A stretch of 64,000 nucleotides of DNA from an uncultured bacterium (GCA_963759805.1 CAVXAT010000002.1:5532-69531), one strand, 5' to 3'; shown: positions 4,450 to 63,958, counted from the stretch's first letter. Program-made: numbers and translations. The notes: generated from the sequence alone by a model not told the origin.

Positions 4450-4457
4450 GACCCTCT

Positions 4458-30416: not shown

Positions 30417-30435
30417 AGGACGAGCGCCATGAAGT

Positions 30436-48198: not shown

Positions 48199-48261
48199 AA
48201 AACCCCCTTGGTTTTTGTTATCAACTAGAACTCTTCTGTAACTATGCACTTTTTACTAGCC

Positions 48262-48306
48262 CGCTCGTGGTGAGCTTGTCGAACCATCGCCCTATGGGCG
48301 ACGGGC
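48262..48306. repeat. GC-rich dispersed repeat, copy 3 (with intact TCGCCC-tat-GGGCGA hairpin)
   Basis: CGCTCGTGGTGAGCTTGTCGAACCATCGCCCTATGGGCGACGGG, intergenic between grpE and pssA. Confidence 0.85.
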
Positions 48307-48328
48307 AAAGTTAGGAAAAAAGTCTCTT

Positions 48329-48967: not shown

Positions 48968-49014
48968 TTTAACCTGCCCTTTTCAACCTGAAAATCGTAT
49001 TTTATTATTCCGAA

Positions 49015-49048
49015 TTGTCATCCTGAACTCGTTTCAGGATCCATGGAT
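49015..49048. repeat. Dispersed 34-nt palindromic repeat, copy 2
   Basis: Identical to 24715-24748. Confidence 0.9.
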
Positions 49049-49303
49049 CCTATGTTTTCCACATATTCTATCAATATTAACAGCTTTATTATAAATAAAA
49101 ACCGCTCAAAAATAAAGAAACCCCCACTTTAAACCAAAAATCAGGTGCACAGTATAATTGTTATAATTTTTTTTATAATTTTTTTAAAATCGTTTTTTGA
49201 TAGAAAACTGCAGCTTTTCGCATTTTTTGTTTCAACTATTCCTGATGCAACCATAAAAACTTCAAAACTTATTACAGCGTGAAAACTTTCTCCCACATGG
49301 CCT

Positions 49304-49332
49304 TTGACGAGCACGTTTTAATGCGCTAAATT
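49304..49332 (+). promoter_or_regulatory. Candidate sigma70-type promoter for the 49391-58372 gene string
   Basis: TTGACG (49304-49309), a 17-nt spacer, then TAAATT (49327-49332), about 60 nt upstream of the ATG. Called by eye only. Confidence 0.3.
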
Positions 49333-49390
49333 ACAAATAGATGTAAATTGTTTTTTTACAAAAACGGTTATTTATTAATAGGAGGTTATC

Positions 49391-52300
49391 ATGAAAAAGA
49401 TTTTTCATGTTTTTTCGATGTTACTGTTGTTAGGTTCGTTACAAGTTGATCTTTGCGCAATGCAGGAACCAGATGATGCAACGACTCCCGTTGAAATACC
49501 AGTAGATCATCCAAATTCCGGCCTGATAAACGGCCAGAGCATCTGTTATCTAAACGCTGTAATTCAATGTCTTTCAAATCTTAAAACTTTCAGAGAAAAA
49601 TTGTTAGCCCACGAAGACACTTATCAGAACAATCCTCTTGTTTTAAATTTAATCAGATTATTCAAAGACTTAAGAACAACCACAGAACCTGCAATACAAA
49701 ATGACACCTTGATTGGCCATGTAAAAACGTTAATCACAAATCAATCAGGAAATGCACGAGAACACTTTCAAGATGCGGATGAAATTCTAACTCTGTTGTT
49801 AGGACAAATTAACAAACCAAACAAAATTTCTTTAGAGTTACAACTTGATCAGAAAGTTAAATGCCTTGGAGCTCATGGTGCAGCCGGTTGTCAGCACGAA
49901 TCCCCAAAACATGAGACGCATGAAACAATTGCATTACCACTTGATGAAATTGCCACTCAAAATACACTTCAAGCATTGCTTGAAAGCTTTTTTACATCAT
50001 CATTCGCACATGATTATGTTTGTGATGGTTGTGGTAAAAAAAATACATCTTTTAAAACTTCTAGAATTTCAAAAAACCAAGATGAATTAATTATCACGTT
50101 AAAAAGATTCAATTCAGATGGGACCAAGATAGATACATCTATTTCATTTCCAATGGAACTCGATTTAAAGCCTTATTCAACAGATGGGCTAAAACAACAA
50201 GCCGGCGTAGATCTTTCATATGAATTAGTTGGTTTTGTTTGTCATGGCGGTAACCATTATATTTCATTTGTAAGAGATTTTGGAAATGGGGAATGGTACA
50301 TGTATAACGATTCGGCAGTCAGCGATGAAATAAATTTGCAACTTATACAAGGGATTACCACGACAGGTAGTTTTTCACTAAATTCTCAAATTTTCACACC
50401 ATACATTTTGTTTTATCAAAAAAATGGAATCGGGGGGCAAACGCTTGCTCATCCAACAGCACAACAATCTGTAGATCAAGATGAAGGCGAAGATTGGGAT
50501 TCATCAGATGGCGAGGATGAACTTCAGCCGCCAACAACTAAAGGCTTTTTTAGCTGGTTTCTTGGATGGGCTACCGGTAACAACCAAAGAGAAGACGAGC
50601 GAAGAAAACAAGAAGAGGTTAAATTGCAAGAAGAGGCGATAAAGAAACGTCAAGAGGAGAAACTAAGGATGCGAAGGGAAACTAGACTACAAGAAGAAGT
50701 GATAGAAAAACGCCAAAACCTAGGACTCATGAAAGTCGAAGCACTCCCATATTTAAATTCAGTCGTACAGTGTCTTTCGAATCTTAAAAAATTTAAGACT
50801 AAACTATTTGCAAGTGAAAATGATTATAAAGATGATTTTTTAATTCTTAGCCTTATTAATCTTATCAAAAGACTGAAGAATTCTAGCGAATCATTAGGAA
50901 ATCAAGATTTTGTAGAGCAAGCAAAGATTTTGGTGCAACAAAGTAAAAATAATGAAGTTGCACTTCAGGTGGCAGATGAATTTTTAAATTTGTTATTTGA
51001 TCGTCTGCATACCCAAGACATGGAACCTCTTAATCTCCTAATTAATATAATTACCCAGTGCATAAAAAACAAAGATATATCAGGTTGCGAATATTCTTTA
51101 GATGAAGATGGAGTTGTGCAACCCAAGACAAGCCTATGTTTTAAAGAATTAAAAAGTGTCCAAGAAATTTTGGCAAAGCAATTTTCACCTTCTTTTGATA
51201 AAGGGTACACCTGCAAATGTTGTCATAAAGCTGGAACTTCTGTTATTACACAGAAATTTTTACGCTGCCCTTCCGAATTAATAATTTCTTTACAACGATT
51301 TGATTCATCTGGAAATAAAGATTTATCGCCAGTTATTTTACCATTGATACTTGATTTGACCCCTTATCTTAGCCATGAATTACTACAACAAATCGATCAG
51401 GCTCCGTATGAATTAGTGGGCATTGTTTGTTGCAATCGAAACTCTCAATATTATTCTTACATGAAAAATATTGCATCAGATAAATGGTTCCGGTACAACG
51501 ATGAGTCCGTTGTAGAGGTCAGCAATCAAGAAATTAAAACGCTGGCAGATTCCGGAATAGATTCGCAAAATTTTGTGCCATACATTTTATTTTATGAATT
51601 AAAGGAGTCCGAATGCCATACAAGTGCATCTCAAGCGCAACAAAGTTCAACTGCAACGAAAGATCAAAGATCAAACGCTAAAAACACACAAGAAATAATG
51701 GCTCAAATGACGAAACTTTGGAATATAAAGAAGCAACAAGAACGGGACCTTAAACGTGCTCAGGGCGTTGCAAAATCGGCTGATAAAAATCTAGTTAATG
51801 CGCAGTTGGATGGAGCCGATTTAACCGATTTGGATTTGAATGGGGCAGATTTAACGGGTGCGTCTTTAATCGGTGCAACATTGGTTAGAACAAAATTGAA
51901 TGGCACAATTTTGGCCAATGCAAAGTTAAATAATGCAATTATTTCGGATGTTCAATTATGCAATGCGACACTAAAAAACACAGATTTGAATAATTCAACA
52001 ATAACGAATATAACCGCTCATAACATAACTATCTCAGATGGTACAAAATTTGAGAATGCAACAATAAGCTCGCTAAATCTAAAAAATATCAAACTACAAA
52101 ATGTGTCTTTTGCAAATGCAACATTAAAAAATATCACATTTTCAACCTCATTAATTGATCATGTAAATATGGCACACATACAAGCTGAGGAGTTATATTT
52201 AAATGAATCTTCGCTGACAAACATAGATTTCAGCAGGGCTTGCATTGTAGGTCTTGATATAAGCAATGCAAACATCATAGGAGATTGGTTAAATTTCAGA

Positions 52301-52981
52301 TATGCAACGATAAAAACGGGGTGCATTAGGGGAACAACCACATCTAGAAGACCTAGCCCTGGCGAACGCTCAGATGGCATCACAGAAAAAGAAAATACAG
52401 GACTAATAATGGATACAGTAGGCGTTTCAACACTTGTGACATCTACAGCTTTTGGTACTGTTACTATTCCTATTCCGATTGTTGGATCTGCCGCTGGATT
52501 TTTCTATGGATTGTTTTTGGTTGGAGTTGAGCTTATCATTCACGATGAATACCTCGACTCAAAAAAAGATTTTGGCGCTTCAAATATTAACAGCATTTTG
52601 CTCAATTCCGATTTTTATGGAGCATCATTACAAGACGTGATTGTGCAACATGTAAAGCTTGGTAATTGTATGAATATTGGAAGAATTAGAAAAGCAGTTG
52701 GAACCAATTTTGATAACATTGTAAGTAGCAATCCAAAGGATTTGGACGATTTAAGACACAAGGGCGCTTGTGTAAATGAAATTCCATCAGACGAATTTAA
52801 AGTACTATGGCCTACAAAAGGAAACGATCAGAAAGTTTTTTGGGTCAAGCTACTTGCTGGTGCTGCGCATGGAACCCTCTCAGGCACCATATCAAAAGTT
52901 GAGACAAATTTACGGGACAAACAACAAGAGGCAAAGTATAAGTCTTTTATATCTGAAGAAATACAAAAAACAAGAAAATAA
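49391..52981 (+). CDS. Signal-peptide protein with tandem USP/UCH (peptidase C19) deubiquitinase-like domains, pentapeptide repeats and a bilobed hydrophobic segment
   Basis: Domain 1 has the Cys box GLINGQSICYLNAVIQCL, zinc-ribbon CxxC pairs, the His box YELVGFVCHGGNHYISFV and WYMYNDSAV. Domain 2 has EALPYLNSVVQCL (Cys replaced by Pro) and YELVGIVCCNRNSQYYSY (His lost). Residues ~800-960 are A(D/N)LxX-type pentapeptide repeats. The hydrophobic hairpin is VGVSTLVTSTAFGTVTIPIPIVGSAAGFFYGLFLVGVELII. Confidence 0.85.
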   Translation: MKKIFHVFSMLLLLGSLQVDLCAMQEPDDATTPVEIPVDHPNSGLINGQSICYLNAVIQCLSNLKTFREKLLAHEDTYQNNPLVLNLIRLFKDLRTTTEPAIQNDTLIGHVKTLITNQSGNAREHFQDADEILTLLLGQINKPNKISLELQLDQKVKCLGAHGAAGCQHESPKHETHETIALPLDEIATQNTLQALLESFFTSSFAHDYVCDGCGKKNTSFKTSRISKNQDELIITLKRFNSDGTKIDTSISFPMELDLKPYSTDGLKQQAGVDLSYELVGFVCHGGNHYISFVRDFGNGEWYMYNDSAVSDEINLQLIQGITTTGSFSLNSQIFTPYILFYQKNGIGGQTLAHPTAQQSVDQDEGEDWDSSDGEDELQPPTTKGFFSWFLGWATGNNQREDERRKQEEVKLQEEAIKKRQEEKLRMRRETRLQEEVIEKRQNLGLMKVEALPYLNSVVQCLSNLKKFKTKLFASENDYKDDFLILSLINLIKRLKNSSESLGNQDFVEQAKILVQQSKNNEVALQVADEFLNLLFDRLHTQDMEPLNLLINIITQCIKNKDISGCEYSLDEDGVVQPKTSLCFKELKSVQEILAKQFSPSFDKGYTCKCCHKAGTSVITQKFLRCPSELIISLQRFDSSGNKDLSPVILPLILDLTPYLSHELLQQIDQAPYELVGIVCCNRNSQYYSYMKNIASDKWFRYNDESVVEVSNQEIKTLADSGIDSQNFVPYILFYELKESECHTSASQAQQSSTATKDQRSNAKNTQEIMAQMTKLWNIKKQQERDLKRAQGVAKSADKNLVNAQLDGADLTDLDLNGADLTGASLIGATLVRTKLNGTILANAKLNNAIISDVQLCNATLKNTDLNNSTITNITAHNITISDGTKFENATISSLNLKNIKLQNVSFANATLKNITFSTSLIDHVNMAHIQAEELYLNESSLTNIDFSRACIVGLDISNANIIGDWLNFRYATIKTGCIRGTTTSRRPSPGERSDGITEKENTGLIMDTVGVSTLVTSTAFGTVTIPIPIVGSAAGFFYGLFLVGVELIIHDEYLDSKKDFGASNINSILLNSDFYGASLQDVIVQHVKLGNCMNIGRIRKAVGTNFDNIVSSNPKDLDDLRHKGACVNEIPSDEFKVLWPTKGNDQKVFWVKLLAGAAHGTLSGTISKVETNLRDKQQEAKYKSFISEEIQKTRK

Positions 52982-53006
52982 AGAATAATAAAGTTAGGAG
53001 GTTATC

Positions 53007-53993
53007 ATGAAATTCAAAAATGTTTTTTCACTCATTTTAATTTTAAACGCTGCAAACTTATTTGCATATGACCAACAAACATATAAAGAACTGCTTGCTG
53101 GTGGCAAAAGGTTTGCAAATGCAGACTTGTCAAAAGCAAAAATCGAAAATATGGATTTATCAGATGTTACTTTTGTGAATGTAAATTTAACTGATGCATG
53201 CTTTCATAATTCGATGCTTACAAATGTCACATTTGATTCATGTAATTTATCGGGTTCTATATTTTATGATATGGTATTTAATAATTCCAAAATTTTAAAC
53301 AAATCTAATTTGGCACATTCTATTTTTGAAAAGGTAATTTTTGATAGCTCAGAAATAAATAATTCATCAATGGCTCATGTCAAATTGTCAGAAACTGATC
53401 TTGTGGCAGCTAGAATTTACAATGTTGACATGTACAACACCAAGCTTGAGTCTGTAAATTTTTCTGCGTGTACCCTGGAGCATATAAATTTCAGGGCAGC
53501 CAAACTCGAATTGGTAAGAATCTACGAAACAACTCAGATTGGTACTGATCTGATCTTTGATCAAGCAACTCTTTCACAGTGCTGTTTCCTAGGCCAAAAG
53601 GAACGCAGTTCAGTTATAGGGGGCGACTTTTTTGGCACGACTATTATGCATAGCTACTTTGTAAATCTAAATTTTGATAACTGTACACGCTTAGATCAAG
53701 TTGGCGATGCAACAAAAAGTTTATTCGACAATATTTCCTCTATTAGTCCAAATGACCTAAGAATATTTGCTGAAAGGCTGAAATTTAAAGAGGCAAAAGT
53801 CAATGGCGAATGGACTAAAGACAAAGACTATTGGAGTAAATTTGAATCTCATTATTGCAAGCAATTTTTTGCGGCATTGTGGCCATCAGTAGCTTATTTA
53901 GGTACTTTCGCCTTTGTTGGATTGGTTTGTCCAGCTGCTGCACCTATAGCAGCATCTGCAGTATCTGGAGGAGTATCTGCAGTAGTTAACTAA
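53007..53993 (+). CDS. Signal-peptide pentapeptide-repeat protein with a C-terminal hydrophobic tail (paralogue of the C-terminal part of 49391-52981)
   Basis: FANADLSKAKIENMDLSDVTFVNVNLTDACFHNSMLTNVTFDSCNLSGSIF... Shares FDNI(S/V)S..P.DL with the USP protein. The tail is FFAALWPSVAYLGTFAFVGLVCPAAAPIAASAVSGGVSAVVN. Confidence 0.8.
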   Translation: MKFKNVFSLILILNAANLFAYDQQTYKELLAGGKRFANADLSKAKIENMDLSDVTFVNVNLTDACFHNSMLTNVTFDSCNLSGSIFYDMVFNNSKILNKSNLAHSIFEKVIFDSSEINNSSMAHVKLSETDLVAARIYNVDMYNTKLESVNFSACTLEHINFRAAKLELVRIYETTQIGTDLIFDQATLSQCCFLGQKERSSVIGGDFFGTTIMHSYFVNLNFDNCTRLDQVGDATKSLFDNISSISPNDLRIFAERLKFKEAKVNGEWTKDKDYWSKFESHYCKQFFAALWPSVAYLGTFAFVGLVCPAAAPIAASAVSGGVSAVVN

Positions 53994-54033
53994 CTATATT
54001 AAATTTAGAATACTGAAAAATTTGGAGGTTATC

Positions 54034-57000
54034 ATGAAATTTAAAAATATTTTGATTTATCTTTTTGCTGTAGGGCAGGTTGGTTTTGCATGGGGAATGG
54101 GAAGAACACAATTTGCTAGTTCGTGTACAGAGCTCTGGTTTCAGGGAAGCAGTATACAGGACCAGGCACGTCCCACAACCTCTAGTGAATGGGGTATCAG
54201 AGTTAATTTACCTTCACGCAGCAGGTACACGAGCGAATCCTCATATTCACGGTCTAGCGGTCCTTTGAGAAAATGTTTTGCTAATTCACCAACGAAGGCT
54301 GTATTTAATTTACCTAATCTTGTGAGTTCTCATCAGTATAAAACTCTTGATAAGGCATTTAGTGCACTACTAAATTCAGACGCTACTGTGAAAGCTGTAC
54401 AAAATGACCCGAATGTTCTTGTACAATTGTATTCCGCATTGGCACAACTTCATGAGCAAATGGCTTTTCAGGATAAAAAGAACACTTTGGTTACAGATGG
54501 TACACACTGGTTTTTACAAAAACCAAATGGAAAACGGCTCGATTTAACATCAAAAGTGTCCAATGCCTCTTATGCAATAAACCAATTTGTCTATGAAATT
54601 AAAGATGAATTAGAAAGCAAAGGAATCCCTTTTGATCTTGTTTTGCGCAGCCATCGCGAATGTGTTGGTTTTTCTAAAGATGGCAAAAAAGTAATTCATC
54701 GATACTCTGGTCTCCCCGGATCCGGGCAGGAATATGTTCTTGATTTGATTGTATCCACGGAAGATGATGGATCCAAAAAGATTACTCACAAGATTAAGAA
54801 TAAAAATAAAGTAAATGATAAAAATTTACGAAAACCAAAAGATGTACAACCGCCAGCTCCCACAATTCCACATGCTCCAACTCCCACTCCAGATATCCTA
54901 TACAAGGGCGTAATTTTATCCCAACAGCCTCTCTTGATTGATACAAGTGTTGATGCACGTTGTAAAGGCACAATAAAAACTTACATGGACTCTCCTAAAT
55001 TTGCCGAAAAGGCATATTCTCTTTTTAATTCCAAAGATGCATTTAGGGGAATCCGTTTTACAGAAAATGATTTTAATTTAACAGAGAGGAGTCCTGATGG
55101 AACACTTGTCTATATTGCAGGAGCTTTAGTGGAACACGAAGATGGCACGAAAGAAGCTGGCGCTATTAGAATTGTTGTAAAACCTAATCCAGAAATGCCT
55201 GAAATAAGAGAGATACATTCTTATGTTGGAGAATTAAATAAAGATGTATCCAATGGGTTGGATGTTAATCCGCTCACTCAGGACCGACCCGGCAAAAAGG
55301 ACGATGGCGTTTCTTCTGATCCTAAAATCTCTCCCACACCTAAACACATCTTTGATATGTCAAAGCTTTTAGATTCTGATCTTAAGCAGATTGACCTACA
55401 CCATTATATGTTGAATCAATCGACAAAACAATTTGTCAGATTTAACTCTCACATTGACAGCTTACAACAGGGTAGAGGAACACAAGCCGCAGATGGTTCT
55501 ACTACAAAACCCCAGCAAGGTCCTAATACTGGTGCAGCTGGTGATAGAAAAGACAAAATAGCTCCCGAAAACGAATATACAGAAGCAGGTCAAACGCATA
55601 AAAACCTTGCGGGTCAGCATCAACTTGAAACTCAAGATCAAGATGATGAATTGCCCAAACAAGAATCCTCTCAGGCAGGGGCAGCTAATGTTGACGCCAA
55701 AGCTGCCGAAGAGGCAGCTGCAGCTAAAGCCCAAGCTGAAGCCGAAGAAACAGCCGCCAAAGCAGCTAAAGAAGAAGCCGACGCTATGGCAAAAAAAGCA
55801 GTCGATAAAAAAATAGCATCTGAAGCCTCAGCAAAGAAAACCAGAAGATCTAAAGCCATCCTAGCTCAACAAAACAAAGATATAACCCAAAAATCTCTAC
55901 ACCAAGCTGAACAAATTGAAGCATTGGTAAATAAGGGGTTCACTAAAGATCTCGCAAAAATGAAAGTATGCGCACCCAGAGAATACAGTGCATTTGTTAA
56001 ATTGAGCGATAAACAGATTTTGCAACGTGAAGAGCTATCCACAGCTAAAACAGATGTAGGGGGCACAGCTAAGCCATCCCAGCCAGTTGAAATGTCACAA
56101 CCAATCAGACTCACACTTGCAGATCGTTTTCAACAAGCAACTTCTGTTGATTCAGGAACTCAAGGAAAACAACCAGCGCTTAATTTTTCGATAGAAGATC
56201 GAAACCGTGGATTCAAAGAGCGCATAGCACGCATGCAACAACACTCAACAAGCAGATTATCAGAACAACCAAAAGCACCTGTAATACCAGAAGTACCGGT
56301 AAAACCAGTTGAAACGCCAACTCAGGCACCACAACCGCAACAACCAACATTTATAGAAAGAATTAGAGAGCGTGCTGCTGAAGTTATTGAAATGGCCAAA
56401 ATACCAGCCCTGGAAACACTCAAAACCGTTGTGACATCTGCCACAGATAATCTTTTAAAATACTTTTTTACTTCCCCTCCCACCATGGACGGAAAACATT
56501 TCTTTGGTGAAGGCCCAGAAGAGACAAGATATACTCCATATTTGGATAGGCCACTACTAAATTTGCAAAGTAAATTGCATCCAGACATGGAAATGCAAGA
56601 CTCATCACAAAATCTAGCAACTGCAGCTGCTTCTTCTGGCGAACAGGAATATCCGATTATGTTCGATCCCACAGCTCGCCCAGTAAAAATAACGCACACT
56701 GGATATTCTTCATCTAATCCTACGGAAGTAGAAAAACCCTTTGTAATGCCTCACGATGTCGGCATTGAAGGACCAACTGCAACAACACAAACTGGTCACT
56801 TAAACCTGGAACAATTTAAACGCCACACAGACTACACGGCAAAGAAAAGTGCAGAATTGGCAGAGATTACTCGTGATAACCCAACGCTGCAAAATACCTG
56901 CAAATTTGTGGATGCTCTGAATAGATTTGCTAACTTATATGCAGAGGCTGATGATGGGGTTGGAGCAACCGCTTTGGGCAAAGCCGCACAAAACACATTG

Positions 57001-58032
57001 CGCAATGCACAAAGGGCTGCGACAGCATTGGGTAGAGGTGCAATTCGAGGTGCTGAGAAATTTGATCCCAAGGTTATGTTTGTTGCCAATGCAAAACTTG
57101 CAATGTTTGCAATTGGGGAAATTAGCAGGCAAGAAACTGTCGACCAGGCCTTTTTATCTTTCAATCCTGAACAAGCTGAGCAGGCGGCTTCGGCACATGC
57201 TCAACATTGCACAGAACAGTATCAAGCATTTTCAACGGCTGCCAAACAAACTCTTGAGCGGTTAAGGAGCATGCCATGGGAAGAAGTGCTTGAAAATGGT
57301 TCTGAGCTTGGTGTTGATCTTGTTATGCAAGGTGTGTTTATTAACGGACTGGGCAAACTTGGTGGAACAGCATTGCAGCGTTTTGCTGCATTAACATCGG
57401 ATTTAAATGAAATTGTCAAAGCTGAAAAAATAGCCGCTGCCACTGGAAAGGCTTCCGCTCAAATTACAGAGCTTGGGCAACAGGTTGCTGTTGTAGGTAA
57501 ACTTACTGAACAAGAGGGATCTGAAGTAGCAGGAAGAGTTGTTGGAATTATTAAAGATAATCCCGAGCTTATCCAGAGCGAATTTGGTTTTGTACAAACT
57601 GTAAGAGCTGTATCAAAAATTGAGCAAAAGCCACATTGGGAATCGCTTGCGCTTGACCCTGCCCATGGAAATAAAATAAGTATCAAAAGTATTGAGGAAG
57701 CTTTGGCTGGAATTGCTGCTGAAGAAAAAGGATTTTTACCAGGACCTATTAGGCGCGATCCGAGCGCAGCCGCAGAATTTATTGATACATTAGGAAGAGC
57801 TTGGGATGTTAAAACTCCACTATCACTTGCTCCCAATGGGCAACATGTTTTCAAAATCGACCAGGTATTTAGTAGTATCAAACGAGAACTAGGACTTGGC
57901 GAAAATGTCATCTTGAGTATGATTAAACTTAATAAAGAGGATGCGTTGTCTTTGATTGCAAAATTAAAAACAGAATTGTCAGCAGCTGAGATCGAAAAAA
58001 TTATTACTGTTTTTAGAGAGGACTTATTTTAA
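54034..58032 (+). CDS. Large secreted polymorphic-toxin-like protein (1332 aa) with a variable C-terminal toxin region
   Basis: GGAGGTTATC precedes the ATG. Signal peptide MKFKNILIYLFAVGQVGFAWG. About 900 aa have no family I recognise. The junction segment is duplicated at 58455-58691. The C-terminal ~130 aa carry a D-x7-DVK pattern. Confidence 0.7.
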   Translation: MKFKNILIYLFAVGQVGFAWGMGRTQFASSCTELWFQGSSIQDQARPTTSSEWGIRVNLPSRSRYTSESSYSRSSGPLRKCFANSPTKAVFNLPNLVSSHQYKTLDKAFSALLNSDATVKAVQNDPNVLVQLYSALAQLHEQMAFQDKKNTLVTDGTHWFLQKPNGKRLDLTSKVSNASYAINQFVYEIKDELESKGIPFDLVLRSHRECVGFSKDGKKVIHRYSGLPGSGQEYVLDLIVSTEDDGSKKITHKIKNKNKVNDKNLRKPKDVQPPAPTIPHAPTPTPDILYKGVILSQQPLLIDTSVDARCKGTIKTYMDSPKFAEKAYSLFNSKDAFRGIRFTENDFNLTERSPDGTLVYIAGALVEHEDGTKEAGAIRIVVKPNPEMPEIREIHSYVGELNKDVSNGLDVNPLTQDRPGKKDDGVSSDPKISPTPKHIFDMSKLLDSDLKQIDLHHYMLNQSTKQFVRFNSHIDSLQQGRGTQAADGSTTKPQQGPNTGAAGDRKDKIAPENEYTEAGQTHKNLAGQHQLETQDQDDELPKQESSQAGAANVDAKAAEEAAAAKAQAEAEETAAKAAKEEADAMAKKAVDKKIASEASAKKTRRSKAILAQQNKDITQKSLHQAEQIEALVNKGFTKDLAKMKVCAPREYSAFVKLSDKQILQREELSTAKTDVGGTAKPSQPVEMSQPIRLTLADRFQQATSVDSGTQGKQPALNFSIEDRNRGFKERIARMQQHSTSRLSEQPKAPVIPEVPVKPVETPTQAPQPQQPTFIERIRERAAEVIEMAKIPALETLKTVVTSATDNLLKYFFTSPPTMDGKHFFGEGPEETRYTPYLDRPLLNLQSKLHPDMEMQDSSQNLATAAASSGEQEYPIMFDPTARPVKITHTGYSSSNPTEVEKPFVMPHDVGIEGPTATTQTGHLNLEQFKRHTDYTAKKSAELAEITRDNPTLQNTCKFVDALNRFANLYAEADDGVGATALGKAAQNTLRNAQRAATALGRGAIRGAEKFDPKVMFVANAKLAMFAIGEISRQETVDQAFLSFNPEQAEQAASAHAQHCTEQYQAFSTAAKQTLERLRSMPWEEVLENGSELGVDLVMQGVFINGLGKLGGTALQRFAALTSDLNEIVKAEKIAAATGKASAQITELGQQVAVVGKLTEQEGSEVAGRVVGIIKDNPELIQSEFGFVQTVRAVSKIEQKPHWESLALDPAHGNKISIKSIEEALAGIAAEEKGFLPGPIRRDPSAAAEFIDTLGRAWDVKTPLSLAPNGQHVFKIDQVFSSIKRELGLGENVILSMIKLNKEDALSLIAKLKTELSAAEIEKIITVFREDLF

Positions 58033-58033
58033 T

Positions 58034-58372
58034 ATGGCAAACCTGATACTGAAAAATGACAAAGTTATATGGAAGTGTTCCAACTCCATGCTGGCTCTTA
58101 TTTATGAAACAATTATGGGAATTATGAATGATAAAAAAATGAATAAAGAGTCCGCAGTTTGCAAATTTGTGGAAAAATTAAATCAGGATATCTATGGAGA
58201 TGGATGTATTTCTATTGATCTGGATGATTATCTAAAAAACAATGACGATATACTTGTTTTTGCAAAGTTATTTAAGGAATCAATAGAACAGCTTAAGAAA
58301 AAATTTGAATGGCAAGAAGAACTATATAGCCACACATTAAAATTATATCAACAGCTGACATGCCCTGATTAA
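58034..58372 (+). CDS. Candidate immunity protein for the 54034-58032 toxin (112 aa)
   Basis: It starts 2 nt after the toxin stop, is small and cytoplasmic-looking, and is followed by a terminator. The assignment is positional only. Confidence 0.5.
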   Translation: MANLILKNDKVIWKCSNSMLALIYETIMGIMNDKKMNKESAVCKFVEKLNQDIYGDGCISIDLDDYLKNNDDILVFAKLFKESIEQLKKKFEWQEELYSHTLKLYQQLTCPD

Positions 58373-58406: not shown

Positions 58407-58441
58407 GCCTCGGCATGTATAAAAGTGCTGGGGCTTTTTTG
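58407..58441 (+). terminator. Intrinsic terminator after the toxin-immunity pair
   Basis: GCCUCGGCA pairs with UGCUGGGGC (9 bp including 2 G-U pairs), with a 10-nt loop, then TTTTTT. Confidence 0.65.
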
Positions 58442-58461
58442 CTGCACTCGCTACCGTTGGC

Positions 58462-59688
58462 ATGGAAGGACCAACTGCAACAACGCAGACTGGTCGCTTA
58501 AACCTGGAACAATTTAAACTCCACACAGACTACACGGCAAAGAAAAGTGCAGAATTGGCAGAAATTACTCGTGATAACCCAACGCTGCAAAATGCCTGCA
58601 AATTTGTGGATGCTCTCAACAGATTTGCTAACTTGTACGCAGAGGCTGATGATGGGGTTGGAGCAAACGCTTTGGGCAAAGCCGCACGACAAACAGTGCA
58701 TTATGCCGAAAATATAACAAAAATATTTGGCGGTCACATTCAAGAAGCTCTTCTTGGCGTTTCAGATTCAGGCCTGGATCACCTTGACTTTGGAACAGAA
58801 GCTGCGTCTCATCCACAAGAAACTTTAGTAAATATGGCTAATGGCCTCAAAGAGCTTACAATTTTTACTGCAAAAATTATGGCAATAGGAGAGATGTCTC
58901 TAGATAATTCAGAATTAGCACTTGATGCATTTAATAGAGAAATTAGGCCAACGGTGCAACCATTGTACGATAGACTCGAAGCTATGACGGGACCGGAAAG
59001 AACCAGATTTATAACACGTACATTCTGTAATCTTTTTTTGGGGAAATATCTATCGATTGGCTTGCAAGCGGCATCCCTTGGTATATCTGTACCAAACATT
59101 CAGCAATTTAGGTTAGCAACTGCGGCAGCAAAAGAGTTTTATGGATCTTTGATTAATGAAGCAGAAATAGTAAGTAGAATTCCAAATTTTGCGAATTTGC
59201 CACAAAATATGCAAACTCTTTTATCTCCTCTTATATCGATGACTGAGAATCCTGGTAAGTTGGTTGAATTAGGAATCAACAAAGGCCAAGAATTTGCGAG
59301 AAGGATTGCAATAGCACTTGGGCAAAATCCAGAGTTAGTCGTTACAGAAGGCTCATTTGATGGTGCTGTGGCAAGACTTGTGGGTGATTTCGAAAAAGAA
59401 GGTGCGGCGGCAGCTGCAGCCGATGATTTGGCAAGTTTTAGAAAAAGTGAGCGTGGAGCCTCTTCAGGTACTGCTGTTCAAGCTGAGCAGAGTTATGCTA
59501 AAATGTTTGAGCAGAGAATTAGCAAGATGCCAGTGGGTGAAAGAGTTGCAGCGGTGACAGAAGAGGCTCAAAGAATAGCTGCGGCTAGAGGATGGGAAAA
59601 AATGGGTCAAATATCTAGAAGAAATGGGGAAAGAATTGTTTACAAAGATAAAAATGCATCGAAACTTTATTCTGTGGATATATACTGA
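58462..59688 (+). pseudogene. Orphan toxin cassette (5' part): no signal peptide or delivery region, begins inside the conserved junction, and is truncated by an IS insertion at 59680/59681
   Basis: The first 76 aa are nearly identical to residues ~911-986 of the main toxin. No Shine-Dalgarno is visible. The reading frame runs into the IS left end after ...NASKLYSVD. Confidence 0.8.
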
Positions 59689-59770
59689 CCCCATAAAACT
59701 AGACAGTGCAACTTGAGAAAATAAGTACTTTAAAAATATTAGTTATAACAATGAGCCCGGGGGGCATTAA

Positions 59771-60046
59771 ATGAGTAACAAAGTAAGCAGAACCCACAGC
59801 AACAAATTTAAACTAAAAGTTGCATTGGCAGCTATAAAGGCTGATAGGCCAATAGCTGAATTATGCCAAGAATTTGCATTAGCGACAAGTCAAATTTATG
59901 CATGGAAAAAACGGCTTGAAGATCGAGGCATTGAAGTTTTTTCGAGTGAAAAAATGGCTGCAAAAAAAAGTTTAGATGTTGAAAAGTTTCATGTGATTAT
60001 AGGCAAGCTTATTGTAGAACGTGAGTCATTATTGCGGGCGCTTTAA
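59771..60046 (+). CDS. IS3-family OrfA-like HTH protein (extra or remnant copy)
   Basis: KFKLKVALAAIKADRPIAELCQEFALATSQIYAWKKRLE, a transposase_8-type HTH. It is a diverged paralogue of the next ORF, and no OrfB follows it. Confidence 0.7.
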   Translation: MSNKVSRTHSNKFKLKVALAAIKADRPIAELCQEFALATSQIYAWKKRLEDRGIEVFSSEKMAAKKSLDVEKFHVIIGKLIVERESLLRAL

Positions 60047-60147
60047 TGCAATAAACGCAAATGGATAAACTGTGTACAACGACAATAATAATGAATTAGC
60101 ATGAGAATGTTAAATCTAAAAATTTGCTTTACAAGAAAGGCATTCTC

Positions 60148-60426
60148 ATGAGTGATGACACGAAAAAAAGTCATGATGACAAGCTTAAACTTAAGGTGGC
60201 TTTAGCTATGATAAAGGCCGACAAATCAGTTGATACCATCTGTAGAGAATTTAATATTTCAACATGCCAAGCATATGCATGGAAGCAACACCTAGAAGAG
60301 CATGGCAACGAACTTTTTGCAGACAAAAGAAAAGTTAAAAAAGAAGAAACATATGACAAGATTTTGGCAGACCTTGAACAAGTAAAGGAAGAGCGCAATT
60401 TTTTAGTACAAGTGCTCAGTCGCTAG
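60148..60426 (+). CDS. IS3-family transposase OrfA
   Basis: MSDDTKKSHDDKLKLKVALAMIKADKSVDTICREFNISTCQAYAWKQHLE, then a leucine-zipper-like tail. Start set at the ATG; the track starts at an upstream TTG. Confidence 0.8.
   Translation: MSDDTKKSHDDKLKLKVALAMIKADKSVDTICREFNISTCQAYAWKQHLEEHGNELFADKRKVKKEETYDKILADLEQVKEERNFLVQVLSR
60399..60405 (+). promoter_or_regulatory. Candidate -1 programmed ribosomal frameshift heptamer (T TTT TTA) joining OrfA to OrfB
   Basis: In the OrfA frame the codons are AAT TTT TTA. The -1 frame is open from 60378 and runs into OrfB (…FFSTSAQSLDIQVRKQWIEHN…). An OrfAB fusion is the usual IS3 arrangement. Confidence 0.6.
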
Positions 60427-60434
60427 ATATCCAA

Positions 60435-61355
60435 GTGCGCAAGCAATGGATTGAGCACAACAACAAATTGAACTTGTCCAGAAAATGCGATCTGCTCGGT
60501 ATAAATCGAAGTAGCCTTTATTACAAGCCAAAGAAGGCCAACAACCAAGACGAGGTGATTATGGATGAGATACGCAACGAATATGAGAGACATCCATTTT
60601 ATGGATATCGAAAAATACACGAAGTTCTTATCGAAAAAAGCTTTAACCACAACATTAAAAGAACACAGCGGCTAATGACGTTGACAGGTCTTTGTGCAGT
60701 TGCCCCTTATAAAAAAACTAGCATTCCAAACAAGGAACACAAGGTGTACAAATATCTTTTAAGAGGATTACGAGTTTGCCGCCCAAACCAAGTCTGGAAA
60801 ACAGATATCACATACGTAAAAATAAGAGGTGGGTTTGTTTATTTGGTTTGTCTTATCGATGTTTTTAGTCGCAAGATTATGGGATGGGCATTGTCACCAT
60901 ATCTCGATACAGACGTTTGTCTTGAAGCATTGGAAATGGCTCTCGTACTCGGTAAGCCTGAGATTTTAAATAGTGATCAAGGGTGCCAGTTTACAAGTGA
61001 AAGATGGGTTGCTCGTTTAGAAAAAGAAGGTATCAAAATTAGTATGGATGGAATAGGTCGATGGGCAGACAACATCATTATTGAACGATTCTGGCGAACT
61101 ATTAAATATGAAGCACTGTGTTTTTATGTTCTTGAAAACATTGCTGAGACGCGATTAATTATAAAAAACTATATCAACTTTTATAATAGAGAACGCTTTC
61201 ACCAATCACTCGAATATAAAAAACCAGATGAAGTTTACTATGGAGCTATCATTGCAGTAGACCAATCTGATTTTACTTTCGAATCATTGGCTTTTGTATG
61301 TAATAGCAAAATCATCGTTCAACAAAATAAATCAATGGGGATACAAATGGCCTGA
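60435..61355 (+). CDS. IS3-family transposase OrfB (DDE/rve catalytic domain)
   Basis: WKTDITYV (D), LNSDQGCQFTS (D), NIIIERFWRTIKYE (E) and YNRERFHQSL. Confidence 0.9.
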   Translation: MRKQWIEHNNKLNLSRKCDLLGINRSSLYYKPKKANNQDEVIMDEIRNEYERHPFYGYRKIHEVLIEKSFNHNIKRTQRLMTLTGLCAVAPYKKTSIPNKEHKVYKYLLRGLRVCRPNQVWKTDITYVKIRGGFVYLVCLIDVFSRKIMGWALSPYLDTDVCLEALEMALVLGKPEILNSDQGCQFTSERWVARLEKEGIKISMDGIGRWADNIIIERFWRTIKYEALCFYVLENIAETRLIIKNYINFYNRERFHQSLEYKKPDEVYYGAIIAVDQSDFTFESLAFVCNSKIIVQQNKSMGIQMA

Positions 61356-61409
61356 TAAAAATTCTGAAATATAAGTTAAAAATTTGTCTTGACAATGGGG
61401 GTCACTATA

Positions 61410-61534
61410 ATACACAGCATGGACGATTTGAAATATTAAATGAAGAAGGAAAACATTTGGGAGAAGTTGATTTTGATTTCAATTTTACAAAAGAACGTGA
61501 TGCATCAGGTAGCCACGATTTAAATACGCGATAA
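61410..61534 (+). pseudogene. Orphan toxin cassette (3' part): C-terminal half of a colicin-E3-like cytotoxic rRNase domain
   Basis: In-frame continuation TQHGRFEILNEEGKHLGEVDFDFNFTKERDASGSHDLNTR*. Compare colicin E3, recalled from memory: WDSQHGELEGYRASDGQHLGSFDPKTG. Confidence 0.75.
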
Positions 61535-61549: not shown

Positions 61550-62095
61550 ATGGTAGACATTGTTTCTAAAACAATCGATTATTTTTACAAACAAAAAAAT
61601 TATAATGCCTTTAAGGAATGTTGTAAAAATCCATTGAATTTGTTTCTGGAGTTACAGCAATATATAGATAGAAACGGATTAAATTCGTCTGGAGGACCCG
61701 ATAATAAGTACTACCCGGCCAGAGATTGGCACATACATTTTAATGATTATAAGAAAGGTGAATTTGAAATTTCTTATACAACAGTTCTTAATATTTCAAA
61801 ACTTGCACCATTATATTATGTTCAACATGAATTTTCAGTTAAAGATAAAGATGATGATAGAATGACTCCTGTCCTAGATGGTTTTAGTAATCACCCATAT
61901 ACAAAGAAACAGTTTGTTTTGCATGATAAAATTTCATCTGTTTTAAATAAAAAAGGGTATCATGAACTCGAGTATGTTGACATAAGTGAGGCGGTAGAAG
62001 GTTTTAAAATGCCAGAGGGGGTAACTATCTTTGGGCCTAATGTTACAGTTGAAGATTTATTGTTTGCAGATTTATTTGATGTACGTAATAAGTAG
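61550..62095 (+). CDS. Candidate immunity protein for the orphan E3-like toxin (181 aa)
   Basis: It starts 15 nt after the reconstructed toxin stop, has no signal peptide, and is followed by a terminator. The assignment is positional only. Confidence 0.45.
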   Translation: MVDIVSKTIDYFYKQKNYNAFKECCKNPLNLFLELQQYIDRNGLNSSGGPDNKYYPARDWHIHFNDYKKGEFEISYTTVLNISKLAPLYYVQHEFSVKDKDDDRMTPVLDGFSNHPYTKKQFVLHDKISSVLNKKGYHELEYVDISEAVEGFKMPEGVTIFGPNVTVEDLLFADLFDVRNK

Positions 62096-62130: not shown

Positions 62131-62163
62131 GCCCTGGCCGGTAAAACGGCTGGGCTTTTTTTG
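62131..62163 (+). terminator. Intrinsic terminator after 61550-62095
   Basis: CCCUGGCCG-guaaaa-CGGCUGGG stem (with G-U pairs), then CTTTTTTT. Confidence 0.6.
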
Positions 62164-62222: not shown

Positions 62223-63602
62223 TTAGTTTCTAGCGTTTTCTCGAGATAGTCTTAATGCCTCATCTCGTGCATTCGCAAACTCTGTTCTTGCTTCTGCTAA
62301 TTTATGAGATATATCAAGCCTATTTGCCTGTAGGATTGTGGCTTGTTCTTTGAATTTGTTCTCCTCCATTCTTCTATCAAATTCGCGACTAACAATTTGC
62401 TGAATTCTTTGTGCTTCTTTTTCAGCATAAAATTGCCTTCCCAGCCATGAATCTCGTGGAGGGTGCATCCTTTCATCAAGAGGTATCCATGACTCATTTG
62501 CGTGAATGTTTTGCCTAAAAGATACAGCACGTTCTTCCAAGGCTGTGGTTTGTATAGCCGCTTTTATTTGGACCAATTTTCCGTCTAGAACGGAAATCTC
62601 TGATTGTTTTCGATCAGCTTCTTCCCATGCCAACCTGCTGGGATCATTTGCTGGTCTACCTAGTGCTTTTTCTCGCAACTGTGTTTCTTCTGCACGCCTG
62701 TATTCTACCTCTGCCCATTCACAAGCAGCTTCTTCATCTCTAATTTTTTGTAGTCGTGCTTCTTCTGCTTGCCTGCTGGCTTGCTCTTCTTCTAGAATTT
62801 TTCGCTTACGAGCTTCCTCCGCTTCTCTACGAACATGCTCTTCATCTCGGATTTTTTGTAATCGTGCTTCTTCTACTTGCTTGCGCACTCGTTCTTCTTC
62901 TAAGGCCTTTCTTTGAAGAGCTCCCTCAGCCTGCCTATGAGCAGTCTCTTCTTTAAAAAATGCTTCTTTTATTTTGTTAGTCCCATAAAGATCTTTTATC
63001 GACATAATAATGCTTAGCCCCAAAGCAACTCCGTACAATATCTGTTCTGGACTCTTATCTTTACTGATAATTATATTATCAAATAACCGAAATGCGGAAT
63101 TCAATGACTTACACTTTAATCTAAAATCTGCATCTTCAATTGTAGCCCTATCTTTAAGTGAAGCAAATAATGCAGTTAGGCCTTCGATAAATGGAATTAA
63201 TCCCGTGTGAAAAGTTTTAAGAAATCCTTCTAATTTTTTTATATCTTCCGAATTTTGAGTTATATCTTCAGGTTTGTTAAATAAATCAACTAAATGTGTA
63301 ACGAAACGTACTCCATCATAGGCTGCCCAAATATAATCGTACTTATGAAATTCCAATTCTCCATTCTTATTAATTATAGAAAGTACTTCACTTGACAATC
63401 GAAGAACATCTACTGATAAATTCAAAATATGATGGTACTTTTTACTAGATTCGGGGCTTAACTTATTTTTAATTGCAAGCGTCGGAATTCTTAAAAGTGC
63501 AACAATTGATTCAACATTGTTTAGATCTATTTCAGAAAATAAATTGCTTGAATATGTGCTTGTGCTGAAAAAAAGAATAAGCATAACTATTTTTTTAAGC
63601 AT
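62223..63602 (-). CDS. Secreted coiled-coil protein with internal Glu/Arg-rich repeats, function unknown
   Basis: Signal peptide MLKKIVMLILFFSTSTYSS. The repeated segment is EEARLQKIRDEEHVRREAEEARKRKILEEEQASRQAEEARLQKIRDEE. Confidence 0.6.
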   Translation of the reverse strand: MLKKIVMLILFFSTSTYSSNLFSEIDLNNVESIVALLRIPTLAIKNKLSPESSKKYHHILNLSVDVLRLSSEVLSIINKNGELEFHKYDYIWAAYDGVRFVTHLVDLFNKPEDITQNSEDIKKLEGFLKTFHTGLIPFIEGLTALFASLKDRATIEDADFRLKCKSLNSAFRLFDNIIISKDKSPEQILYGVALGLSIIMSIKDLYGTNKIKEAFFKEETAHRQAEGALQRKALEEERVRKQVEEARLQKIRDEEHVRREAEEARKRKILEEEQASRQAEEARLQKIRDEEAACEWAEVEYRRAEETQLREKALGRPANDPSRLAWEEADRKQSEISVLDGKLVQIKAAIQTTALEERAVSFRQNIHANESWIPLDERMHPPRDSWLGRQFYAEKEAQRIQQIVSREFDRRMEENKFKEQATILQANRLDISHKLAEARTEFANARDEALRLSRENARN

Positions 63603-63658
63603 AAAAATCCTTTTGAACTAAATAAAATTACCTTGATGGAGGCTTCAGGTTGTTAAAT

Positions 63659-63958
63659 TTACGCCGGCTTTGCTATTTCATTTGAAGTGGCTTCTTTTAC
63701 TGTTTTCAAGATAAATTCTTTCAATATATCTTTGAGCGTAGGGTGTGTTTTATTGTTGTAATGCTCTAAAATTGAAAATAATTTATCTGTGGAAATAGGC
63801 GAAATTTTATCTTCCATTTCAAATAACACGTTTAAAGATTTATCATAGAATTTAAACAAGCCATAATTTCCCAGGGAAATTAGAAAGGATGAAATTTGAT
63901 CAACATCCTTCCATTCGATACTTTTGCCATTCCAAAATTTAATTTCATGATAATTCAT
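63659..63958 (-). CDS. Hypothetical small cytoplasmic protein (99 aa)
   Basis: The ORF has AT-rich codon usage like its neighbours. No recognisable motif. Confidence 0.4.
   Translation of the reverse strand: MNYHEIKFWNGKSIEWKDVDQISSFLISLGNYGLFKFYDKSLNVLFEMEDKISPISTDKLFSILEHYNNKTHPTLKDILKEFILKTVKEATSNEIAKPA

Follow-up and report, generated by a model that had tools for sequence, protein, structure and literature searches.

An IS3-family insertion within the catalytic motif of a colicin E3-like toxin gene in an orphan polymorphic-toxin cassette of an uncultured bacterium

In a 64,000-nt stretch of DNA from an uncultured bacterium (GCA_963759805.1 CAVXAT010000002.1:5532-69531; hereafter the window), an insertion sequence (IS) interrupts an ORF that lies downstream of a large toxin gene. 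The question raised by this locus is what the interrupted ORF encoded before the insertion and what was lost with it. Overall, the first-pass annotation, which described a colicin E3-like toxin gene split in its active site by an IS3-family element, was supported with minor corrections.

Reconstruction of the split ORF

58462..59680, + strand: 5' fragment of the orphan toxin gene, codons 1-406 and the first base of codon 407
59678..59680, no strand: target-site duplication ATA, left copy
59681..61409, + strand: IS3-family insertion sequence, from its ends, the independent copies L006-L009 and the transposase profile score
61410..61412, no strand: target-site duplication ATA, right copy
61413..61534, + strand: 3' fragment of the orphan toxin gene, …(T)QHGRFEILNEEGKHLGEVDFDFNFTKERDASGSHDLNTR*, with the catalytic His and Glu

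The ORF as present in the genome extended from 58462 to 59688 and ended in ...KLYSVD-IY*, as had been read for the left flank at the IS end, giving a truncated product of 408 aa. The last full codon of the 5' fragment was that of the catalytic Asp. The element (59681-61409; 1,729 bp) lay inside the ORF, and the ATA reported on both sides of it was seen at 59678-59680 and 61410-61412, the insertion target spanning codons 406/407. Deletion of the IS and one ATA copy, by joining 58462-59680 to 61413-61534, gave GTG GAT ACA CAG CAT GGA in an open ORF of 446 aa which reads ...KLYSVD|TQHGRFEILNEEGKHLGEVDFDF..., in agreement with the in-frame rebuild proposed earlier. The IS and the duplication together measured 1,732 bp (3n+1) and therefore the 3' fragment is out of frame with the 5' fragment in the genome as present; the earlier statement that the same frame continues to the right of the IS holds after excision but not in the sequence as it stands. 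A 29-mer of the empty site had no match in the metagenome contigs, where no uninterrupted allele was found, and a protein search returned nothing above 50% identity except the truncated ORF itself. Since no uninterrupted allele of the exact gene was found, the pre-insertion state is a reconstruction.

Ends, genes and copies of the insertion element

59771..60046, + strand: IS orfA1, 91 aa, additional helix-turn-helix gene (Pfam HTH_28, HTH_Tnp_1)
60148..60426, + strand: IS orfA2, 92 aa, helix-turn-helix gene that precedes and pairs with the transposase frame
60399..60405, + strand: T TTT TTA slippery heptamer, candidate -1 frameshift site in the orfA2/orfB overlap
60435..61355, + strand: IS orfB, DDE (rve) transposase domain (Pfam rve, NCBIfam IS3 transposase)
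61384..61411, + strand: promoter-like TTGTCT-16-TATAAT, facing outward across the right end of the IS into its flank (consensus scan)

The ends of the element were of the inverted TATA(C/G)TGACCCC type (TATACTGACCCC on the left and TATAGTGACCCC on the reverse strand) and formed inverted repeats of 12 bp with one mismatch. The motif had two matches in the whole window (0.2 expected), which were the two IS ends at the span given earlier. Independent copies of the element (L006-L009) had identical ends, and the boundaries held when compared with L006 (97.6% identical), L007 and L008 (both 100%), whose alignments covered the exact element span and stopped before the 60-nt flanks. L006 and L007 also carried their own 3-bp duplications (CTG/CTG and AAG/AAG), which with ATA makes three independent sites, and comparison of the flanks showed that the other IS copies were at unrelated sites. 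The anatomy of the locus, the element boundaries and the exact reconstruction were confirmed.

The transposase scored 261.4 bits against NCBIfam NF033516 (cut-off 160), bearing out the assignment to the IS3 family, with further Pfam matches to rve (E 7.9e-21), rve_3 and HTH_21. The orfB frame is -1 and open from 60378, overlapping orfA2 at 60378-60426, and the T TTT TTA heptamer is in X XXY YYZ phase with a predicted frameshift fusion of 402 aa. As in the IS3 family (IS911, IS150 type), the DDE transposase of the element passed the NCBIfam IS3 cut-off, orfA and orfB stood in 0/-1 frames with a slippery heptamer where the two overlap, and the ends were inverted repeats next to target duplications of 3 bp (family range 3-5 bp). 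In addition, the tips had promoter-like hexamers, TTGACA (-35-like) close to the right one and TATACT (-10-like) at the left one, an arrangement known from the junction promoters of IS circles. It differed from the family in having a second, paralogous orfA upstream (orfA1, 41% identical to orfA2), present in every other copy, and in the placement of TG and CA, canonically at the tips, 5 nt inward (TATAC-TG...CA-CTATA). A nested or composite IS, as the two orfA genes could suggest, was rejected because all independent copies had the same three genes and 1,729-bp span and there was no internal inverted-repeat match. The plasmid collection contained no close DNA relative of the IS (best 9% coverage at 74% identity), and the exact 27-mer of the left end had no match in species-representative genome contigs. 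Finally, the promoter-like site at the right end, which is directed towards the 3' toxin fragment and the immunity gene, was a consensus match only (10 of 12 positions), of a kind common in AT-rich DNA (21 found vs 13.7 expected).

The rebuilt toxin domain

The profile check that had been proposed for the joined sequence gave a match above the curated gathering cut-off (22 bits) of PF09000 (Pfam 'Cytotoxic', colicin E3 rRNase): the rebuilt 104-aa C-terminus scored 27.1 bits (E 5.5e-6) and the whole rebuilt 446-aa protein 23.5 bits. Taken singly, the 3' fragment remained sub-threshold (16.4 bits) and the 5' fragment had no match. All ten aligned family members matched PF09000, while a search of the domain against NCBIfam returned no family. 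Pfam and PDB matches were limited to the beta-sheet core, from position 26 to 64 in the 80-position profile; the N-terminal helical half of the domain had no counterpart in E3 and is subfamily-specific. Homologs formed 357 clusters at 50% identity, and in all matches listed the domain was C-terminal, on carrier proteins of 54 to 2,662 aa.

The rebuilt D406-T-Q-H409-G-R-F-E413 aligned with D510/H513/E517 of colicin E3, residues described as essential in PMC4905994. This triad was invariant in the 10-sequence alignment, the nine homologs all having an unbroken YS[VLI]D[TS]QHGR[FL]E, and the window copy retained every residue invariant in the alignment. Alignment of the triad also bore out that the catalytic Asp lies on one side of the insertion and the His and Glu on the other. 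The colicin E3 match had been described as free of gaps, which is correct through D..H...E, but one residue is skipped before GxHLG. For the auxiliary residues of E3 (R495, R497, E515 and R545, as named in PMC4905994), R495 corresponded to an invariant Arg, R497 to Val and E515 to Arg, with R545 outside the aligned stretch.

A single-sequence phmmer search of PDB ranked colicin E3 (E 0.45) below chance matches to FlgN and a nanobody; with the 10-sequence profile the top five PDB sequences were colicin E3, the best at E 0.012. The AF2 model of the domain (pLDDT 89.8) had colicin E3 RNase entries as all of its top five Foldseek matches in PDB, with probability 0.99-1.00, and TM-scores of 0.39-0.46; four of these hits had an rmsd of 1.9-2.1 A over 48-50 columns, and the top one superposed at 3.8 A over 68. 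Sequence and predicted fold together place the domain in the colicin E3/cloacin rRNase family (PF09000), and its activity would be the cleavage of 16S rRNA at the A site, between A1493 and G1494.

Like colicin E3, cloacin DF13 and pyocin S6, the domain had a profile match above the curated cut-off and a D-x2-H-x3-E motif followed by the GxHLG stretch; as in the colicin E3 group, the predicted beta-sheet core superposed on 1e44, 1jch, 2b5u and 4v5k and the C-terminal toxin domain was followed by an immunity gene. It differed from colicin E3 in that about half of the domain aligned (identity ~31-33% over 48 columns), in the lack of conservation at R497 and E515, and in the absence of the colicin translocation/receptor domains, plasmid and lysis gene, the setting in the window being chromosomal with GrpE and HtrA-like genes present. 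A 16S rRNase with an E3-like fold was reportedly found by Beck and colleagues in 2014 in the Enterobacter cloacae CdiA-CT, which is likewise an E3-like rRNase used as polymorphic-toxin tip with an immunity protein unrelated to Im3. This CdiA-CT was absent from the Foldseek and sequence hits of the window domain, which, going by those hits, would therefore be closer to the colicin E3 branch.

The toxin locus and the orphan cassette

54022..58032, + strand: gene of the full-length polymorphic toxin, 1,336 aa, N-terminus signal-peptide-like (ORF)
56758..57013, + strand: homology handle copy 1, inside the full-length toxin gene (direct repeat)
58034..58372, + strand: candidate immunity gene of the full-length toxin, 112 aa (position only)
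58407..58434, + strand: terminator-like hairpin and T run, just upstream of the orphan
58456..58711, + strand: homology handle copy 2, start of the orphan module (direct repeat)
61550..62095, + strand: candidate cognate immunity gene of the orphan toxin, 181 aa, intact
62133..62154, + strand: terminator-like hairpin closing the module

The full-length toxin had no Pfam or NCBIfam match, and its C-terminal domain, of unassigned family, differed from that of the orphan. Its residues 915-1004 were 81% identical to orphan residues 1-90, with divergence thereafter. At the DNA level this homology handle was a 256-nt direct repeat (56758-57013 vs 58456-58711; 91% identical) which begins 22 nt beyond the terminator-like hairpin, and the orphan ATG (58462) corresponded to an internal ATT (Ile) codon of the full-length gene. 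The 112-aa candidate immunity gene starts 2 nt past the full-length toxin stop codon and its product had no Pfam or NCBIfam family. The orphan cassette comprised the handle of ~250 nt, a variable region of ~350 codons, the C-terminal domain of ~100 residues and the 181-aa immunity gene. It had no N-terminal delivery region and starts instead with the stretch homologous to the full-length gene.

The relative in L005 had the E3-like module on its full-length gene; aligned from end to end, the orphan was 50% identical to the C-terminal 446 aa of this intact toxin. The Babeliales (Dependentiae) MAG JBAZAX010000006.1 had the same module uninterrupted, on a full-length toxin in the syntenic locus; the N-terminus MEVIMKFKNILIYLF was common to this toxin and the full-length toxin of the window. 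The same toxin domain was also present on Rhs, PT-HINT and WXG100/T7SS-context proteins (54-58% identity) with adjacent immunity genes. Neighbouring ORFs of the window locus encoded UCH, pentapeptide repeats, GrpE, CDP-alcohol phosphatidyltransferase and an HtrA-like protease. No secretion or delivery domain (T5SS, T6SS, T7SS etc.) was found in the toxin or the seven neighbouring ORFs (45617-53993, 62223-63958), and the whole window had no tRNA genes or Rfam families.

Judged from sequence and homologous loci, the arrangement is that of a polymorphic-toxin system with an orphan module, in which a conserved N-terminal/central region is combined with alternative C-terminal domains. Orphan cdiA-CT/cdiI and rhs-CT/rhsI modules (Poole 2011, Koskiniemi 2014) are covered in the reviews PMC9086364 and PMC4436062. 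The window module resembled them in its toxin tip and immunity pair downstream of a full-length gene, in the missing N-terminal delivery part and in the initial homologous stretch (here 91% over 256 nt), through which recombination could take place. Loci of this type are also known to be complicated by transposable elements. Unlike in the cdiA/rhs systems, the N-terminal and central regions of the window toxin had no match to CdiA, Rhs, MafB or any further Pfam family, and the neighbouring genes encoded a UCH deubiquitinase and pentapeptide-repeat proteins instead of CdiB, VgrG or T7SS components.

The candidate immunity gene

The downstream immunity candidate had been described as kept, and it proved to be an intact and conserved partner of the toxin domain. 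Homologs of the 181-aa protein (34-59% identical) came directly after this toxin domain in five more distinct loci (L005, L010/L011, L012, L003 and L004) with gaps of ~5-50 nt. The protein had no Pfam or NCBIfam family above threshold (Pfam Tubby_C_like scored 18.6 bits, below its 24.4 cut-off), and the fold search with its model gave no match, Im3 included (best Crl, TM <0.3, rmsd 7 A). In this it differs from the colicin E3 system, as the 181-aa protein resembles Im3 neither in sequence nor in fold. Other marks of a colicin operon, namely an Im3/cloacin-type immunity protein (PF03513), colicin T/R domains and a plasmid site, were likewise absent from the locus. The linkage of toxin and immunity gene is thus a repeated one, and the 181-aa protein would have a protective role; more widely, it hints at an uncharacterised immunity family for E3-like rRNases.

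Discussion

The locus very probably holds a decayed orphan cassette, consisting of a displaced E3-type tip and its immunity gene and later split by an IS3-family insertion. The source genome is probably a Dependentiae/Babeliales bacterium, an assignment based on one syntenic MAG and the source names of homologs. The cassette would most likely be the former toxin tip of the locus, displaced by the arrival of a new tip and immunity pair, and a related MAG keeps this tip on its full-length gene. As it stands the orphan would be silent because it has no N-terminal delivery region, and it was probably silent before the insertion, although its ATG makes independent translation possible; in principle, it could have been re-armed by recombining at the handle. 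The multi-copy IS3-family element would then have entered ATA at codons 406/407 and duplicated 3 bp, splitting Asp from His/Glu, stopping the ORF after two foreign codons and putting the 3' fragment out of frame, and the reserve toxin allele would therefore be dead with the immunity gene intact. The toxin had been described as cleanly inactivated; as the module was probably silent already, inactivation here means the loss of a reserve allele and not of an active weapon. Gene decay of this sort is ordinary, and the toxin system belongs to a known kind.

An assembly artefact, in which a repeat-induced misjoin placed an IS copy in the gene, hardly deserves credence. The IS is present in several copies, some of them 100% identical, and assemblers err at such repeats, but a misjoin would not yield a 3-bp duplication whose removal exactly restores a conserved motif, and both flanks are the same gene in correct order and orientation. 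It is also improbable that the insertion was selected, either for removing a leaky self-harming fragment or for supplying the immunity gene with a promoter from the IS right end. The site exactly within the catalytic motif, the promoter-like TTGTCT-16-TATAAT facing a fully intact immunity ORF and the position of the orphan behind a terminator-like hairpin would suit such selection. However, a single event is insufficient to show it, the domain takes up ~8% of a 1.3-kb module, the target trinucleotide is AT-rich and otherwise plain, the other IS copies are at unrelated sites, and the promoter is a 10/12 match at the frequency noted above for AT-rich DNA. The location in the active site was more plausibly coincidental.

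The substrate could also be a different one, the E3-like fold and triad serving e.g. against the decoding centre of host 18S rRNA or another RNA after delivery by an intracellular parasite into a protist, with the immunity protein merely shielding the ribosomes of the producer before export. Dependentiae, the probable lineage, are eukaryote parasites (PMC4776705), the locus adjoins a eukaryote-type UCH deubiquitinase (an ankyrin/RING gene is nearby in L001), and conservation is confined to the core of the E3 domain and does not extend to R497 and E515. Against this, the domain is found at 54-58% identity on Rhs, PT-HINT and WXG100/T7SS toxins with immunity genes, which is an interbacterial signature, and an orphan cassette with a handle is typical of interbacterial polymorphic toxins (PMC4436062). 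A different substrate is thus unlikely, and the displaced bacterial 16S rRNase tip is the preferred reading.

Current understanding of E3-type and polymorphic toxin systems is unchanged by this case. The truncated ORF had no domain match and would therefore be annotated as hypothetical, while in silico removal of the IS exposes an E3-type rRNase toxin; IS-split toxin genes can be recovered exactly in this way. The locus would document how a toxin tip was displaced and, as a reserve allele, then decayed while its immunity gene was kept, the pattern expected if immunity remains useful after toxin loss. The literature searched contained no paper on polymorphic toxins together with Dependentiae. 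A wider and rather doubtful suggestion is that the locus represents an undescribed polymorphic-toxin family of Dependentiae (TM6), obligate protist parasites, with its own scaffold, partners and immunity family. If true, the scaffold of such a family would bear a signal peptide, its partner genes would encode pentapeptide repeats and its immunity proteins would form a new family specific to E3-type rRNases; Dependentiae might fight bacteria inside or between host cells or direct the rRNase against host ribosomes. On this view the IS-split orphan would be a relic of the turnover of toxin tips in a Dependentiae system.

Reconstruction of the interrupted toxin gene

The toxin gene, split by an insertion sequence (IS), and the gene downstream of it had the following coordinates:

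58462-59688, 5' fragment of the toxin ORF
61413-61534, 3' fragment of the toxin ORF
61550-62095, immunity candidate of 181 aa, intact, starting 15 nt past the toxin stop codon

The 5' fragment ended in ...RIVYKDKNASKLYSVD and then read IY* into the IS, as the first-pass annotation had described, and the sequence starting at 59681 was TATACTGACCCC... The right end of the IS (61398-61409) was the reverse complement of TATAGTGACCCC, and TATASTGACCCC with at most one mismatch had only two matches in the 64-kb window, both at the IS ends (0.2 expected). ATA was present twice, at 59678-59680 and 61410-61412. Removal of the IS with one ATA, which joins 58462-59680 to 61413-61534, restored GTG GAT ACA CAG CAT GGA within a single open frame of 446 codons with the C-terminus ...KLYSVDTQHGRFEILNEEGKHLGEVDFDFNFTKERDASGSHDLNTR*. 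Moving the junction by one base to either side lost the frame, which showed that the coordinates proposed in the first-pass annotation were exact.

The IS and the duplication together measured 1,732 bp (3n+1), so the 3' fragment is out of frame with the 5' fragment in the present genome; the same-frame continuation to the right of the IS that had been proposed holds only after excision. Within the duplicated ATA, the first two bases completed codon 406 (GAT, Asp406) and the third opened codon 407 (ACA, Thr407). Asp406, the equivalent of colicin E3 D510, was retained on the 5' fragment, which terminated two IS-encoded codons past the junction, while His409 and Glu413 were carried by the 3' fragment, in a different frame and at a distance of 1.7 kb. 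The claimed separation of the catalytic Asp from the His and Glu was thus borne out. The insertion at the active site is regarded as a coincidence.

E3-type rRNase domain

The C-terminal 104 residues of the rebuilt protein matched PF09000 "Cytotoxic", the family of the colicin E3 rRNase domain, with 27.1 bits (cut-off 22, E value 5.5e-6), in agreement with the family assignment of the first-pass annotation, and the whole rebuilt protein scored 23.5 bits. No PF09000 match was found in the truncated ORF or its C-terminal piece, and the 3' fragment alone scored 16.4 bits, under the threshold; the domain is therefore recognisable only after reconstruction.

Besides the truncated ORF, a search of 5.8 billion proteins returned a single full-length relative (P0002, 50% identity across the entire query) and ten more with a partial match, which shared only the last ~100 residues (54-60% identity). 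The motif YS[VLI]D[TS]QHGR[FL]E was uninterrupted in 9 of 9 aligned homologs, and the sequence of one of the homologous proteins (P0006), LYSVDTQHGRFEILN, was identical to the rebuilt junction. The alignment of 10 sequences showed 33 invariant columns, among them D64, H67 and E71 of the domain. All 33 were matched by the copy in the window, which indicates no decay besides the insertion.

The top five PDB sequences matched by the alignment profile were colicin E3 (best E value 0.012). D-TQ-H-GRF-E was aligned with D510-SQ-H513-GEL-E517, which supported the catalytic correspondence proposed earlier; the gap-free alignment claimed with it stood through the catalytic Glu, after which a one-residue gap was needed. 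Colicin E3 depends on D510, H513 and E517 for its activity, according to PMC4905994, which cites Walker et al. 2004. The AlphaFold2 model of the rebuilt domain had a mean pLDDT of 89.8, and its best five Foldseek matches in the PDB were all colicin E3 RNase entries (probability 0.99-1.00), four of them with an rmsd of 1.9-2.1 A and 31-33% identity over 48-50 columns; the match that followed had a probability of 0.04. The structural match was confined to the beta-sheet core (TM 0.39-0.46), and the N-terminal helical half, which has no counterpart in colicin E3, is specific to the subfamily of the window toxin. In an exhaustive HMMER search this subfamily comprised 357 clusters at 50% identity, of which 188 fell below 1e-10. 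The domain was C-terminal in all matches listed, in host proteins of 54 to 2,662 aa, and occurred on other scaffolds, namely proteins with Rhs-type sequences, PT-HINT proteins and one protein in a WXG100/T7SS context.

Boundaries, genes and probable recent activity of the insertion sequence

Several other public contigs also encoded a protein identical to the product of the first IS gene. The window element with 60-nt flanks was aligned to four contigs, with an identity of 97.6% for L006 and 100% for L007, L008 and L009. The alignments of L006, L007 and L008 covered the exact IS span, one base short at the contig end in L008, and none extended into the flanks except for one chance base in L007; the L009 match ended after 1,085 nt at the contig end. 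The other copies were flanked by their own repeats (CTG/IS/CTG in L006 and AAG/IS/AAG in L007). Together, these results showed that the element is a discrete 1,729-bp unit making 3-bp target duplications, with the span and inverted ends of the first-pass annotation, and that the ATA pair is one of these. Misassembly would not give rise to a repeat that, once removed, brings back a conserved motif, and is very unlikely as the source. The identical copies elsewhere suggest recent activity of the element, and no close relative was found in the plasmid collection. The genes of the IS were:

59771-60046, extra HTH gene (second orfA), 41% identical to the HTH gene at 60148-60426
60148-60426, HTH gene upstream of the transposase, overlapping its frame at 60378-60426
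60435-61355, transposase ORF (NCBIfam IS3-family model 261 bits, cut-off 160; Pfam rve, rve_3 and HTH_21)

The transposase frame was -1 relative to the HTH gene at 60148-60426, and their overlap included T TTT TTA in the correct phase for -1 slippage, a candidate frameshift that would produce a 402-aa fusion. Both paralogous orfA genes were kept in all other copies (L006-L009), so they are a fixed feature and a nested insertion was rejected as their origin. In addition, a perfect TTGACA was observed at 61389-61394, 15 nt from the right tip, and the left tip opened with TATACT (59681-59686). Joined with a 3-bp spacer, the ends would form TTGACA-N18-TATACT, an arrangement similar to junction promoters in circularised IS3-family elements.

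Orphan cassette and full-length toxin

The split gene forms the orphan cassette in a polymorphic-toxin locus whose other features were:

54022-58032, full-length toxin, 1,336-aa ORF with a signal-peptide-like N-terminus
58034-58372, 112-aa ORF beginning 2 nt past the full-length toxin
56758-57013 (full-length gene) and 58456-58711 (orphan start), handle, a 256-nt direct repeat, 91% identical
58407-58434, terminator-like hairpin, 22 nt before the abrupt start of homology

Neither the 1,336-aa toxin nor the 112-aa gene matched a Pfam or NCBIfam family. The orphan and the large protein shared 81% identity between residues 1-90 of the former and 915-1004 of the latter, with no similarity beyond, and the orphan ATG aligned with an ATT codon in the interior of the large gene. 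The same anatomy, with a missing delivery region, a stretch for homologous recombination and a dedicated immunity gene, has been described for orphan cdiA-CT and rhs-CT modules (PMC4436062, PMC9086364).

Among 185,579 species-representative genomes, a relative of the full-length scaffold was found only in JBAZAX010000006.1 (L005), a Babeliales (Dependentiae) MAG contig that matched the metagenome contig L001 at 99.9-100% identity. Its gene order mirrored the window, with a UCH deubiquitinase, a pair of pentapeptide-repeat proteins, a toxin of 1,175 aa that shares its N-terminus with the full-length toxin of the window, and a 181-aa gene; the C-terminus of the next gene resembled the window ORF 63659-63958, as judged by eye. 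The rebuilt orphan aligned over its whole length with the last 446 residues of the L005 toxin, at 50% identity. The E3-type module is the working tip in L005, while in the window the full-length toxin carries another tip and the module lies downstream. In the simplest history, an incoming tip and immunity pair would have displaced the E3-type tip, with the IS insertion occurring later.

The UCH and pentapeptide-repeat parts lay directly upstream of the toxin locus. In the window, a 1,196-aa ORF (49391-52981) fused a eukaryote-type UCH domain to pentapeptide repeats, and in L005 these were separate adjacent genes of 704 aa (3765-5879) and 430 aa (5953-7245).

Immunity candidate

The downstream immunity candidate was retained, as previously noted, and its homologs were located directly behind the same toxin domain in five other distinct loci:

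L005 (Babeliales MAG), 59% identical
L012 (TM6 genome of Yeoh et al.), 57% identical
L010/L011, 53-54% identical, two tandem copies
L003, 39% identical, toxin with Rhs-type sequences
L004, 34-35% identical, PT-HINT toxin

At L010/L011 (6720-9107), the two tandem 181-aa paralogues came after a toxin of 421 aa that also bears the E3-like tip. The L002 relative (T7SS context) had a different 106-aa partner in place of the 181-aa protein. The family had no Pfam or NCBIfam model and its members were "hypothetical" in the source annotations, and a confident model of the protein (pLDDT 82.5) had no match in the PDB, including Im3, the colicin E3 immunity protein. From its linkage to the toxin domain, we infer a protective role. 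A promoter-like TTGTCT-16-TATAAT (61384-61411) across the right end of the IS faced the immunity gene; as a consensus match in AT-rich DNA it is given little weight.

Other repeats in the window

A GC-rich repeat with the core GGCGCGCTCGTGGTGAGCTYGTCGAACCATCRCCC was present in several copies (30402-30471, 36107-36176 and 48223-48292) in the 39% GC window, and was neither a tRNA nor a match to any Rfam family. One 81-nt pair of this repeat (30336-30416 and 41411-41491) was inverted and 95% complementary. Diverged tandem repeats of ~150 nt were found at 26901-27935 within ORF 26173-28020, and three 66-nt repeats at 40083-40280 inside the region of ORF 39631-40515.

Proposed role of the cassette and its context in Dependentiae

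Before the insertion, the cassette would have been a silent reserve. Recombination between the handles could restore the E3-type tip to the full-length toxin, deleting the present tip; the restored tip would enter the target cell and, by analogy with colicin E3, cleave the decoding centre of 16S rRNA, while the 181-aa protein would shield the producing cell and its kin. The IS insertion would have abolished this re-arming option, and the retained immunity gene may still protect against relatives with a live toxin.

All components are of known kind, namely E3-type rRNase tips, orphan cassettes, IS3 elements and IS-disrupted toxin genes, and the finding proved accurate and lends itself to neat reconstruction, yet is not surprising. 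The host lineage is probably Dependentiae, for which none of the literature searched mentioned polymorphic toxins. In the TM6 genome contig LDIV01000003.1 (L012, 860-7681), PT-HINT-type toxins and fragments formed an array with differing tips (Ntox17, E3-like and others), a small gene after each and a transposase-like ORF between them, which indicates that polymorphic-toxin arrays recur in Dependentiae. Less familiar are Dependentiae as the probable host of polymorphic toxins, the unannotated toxin scaffold with its pentapeptide-repeat neighbours, the new 181-aa immunity family and the IS with two orfA genes.
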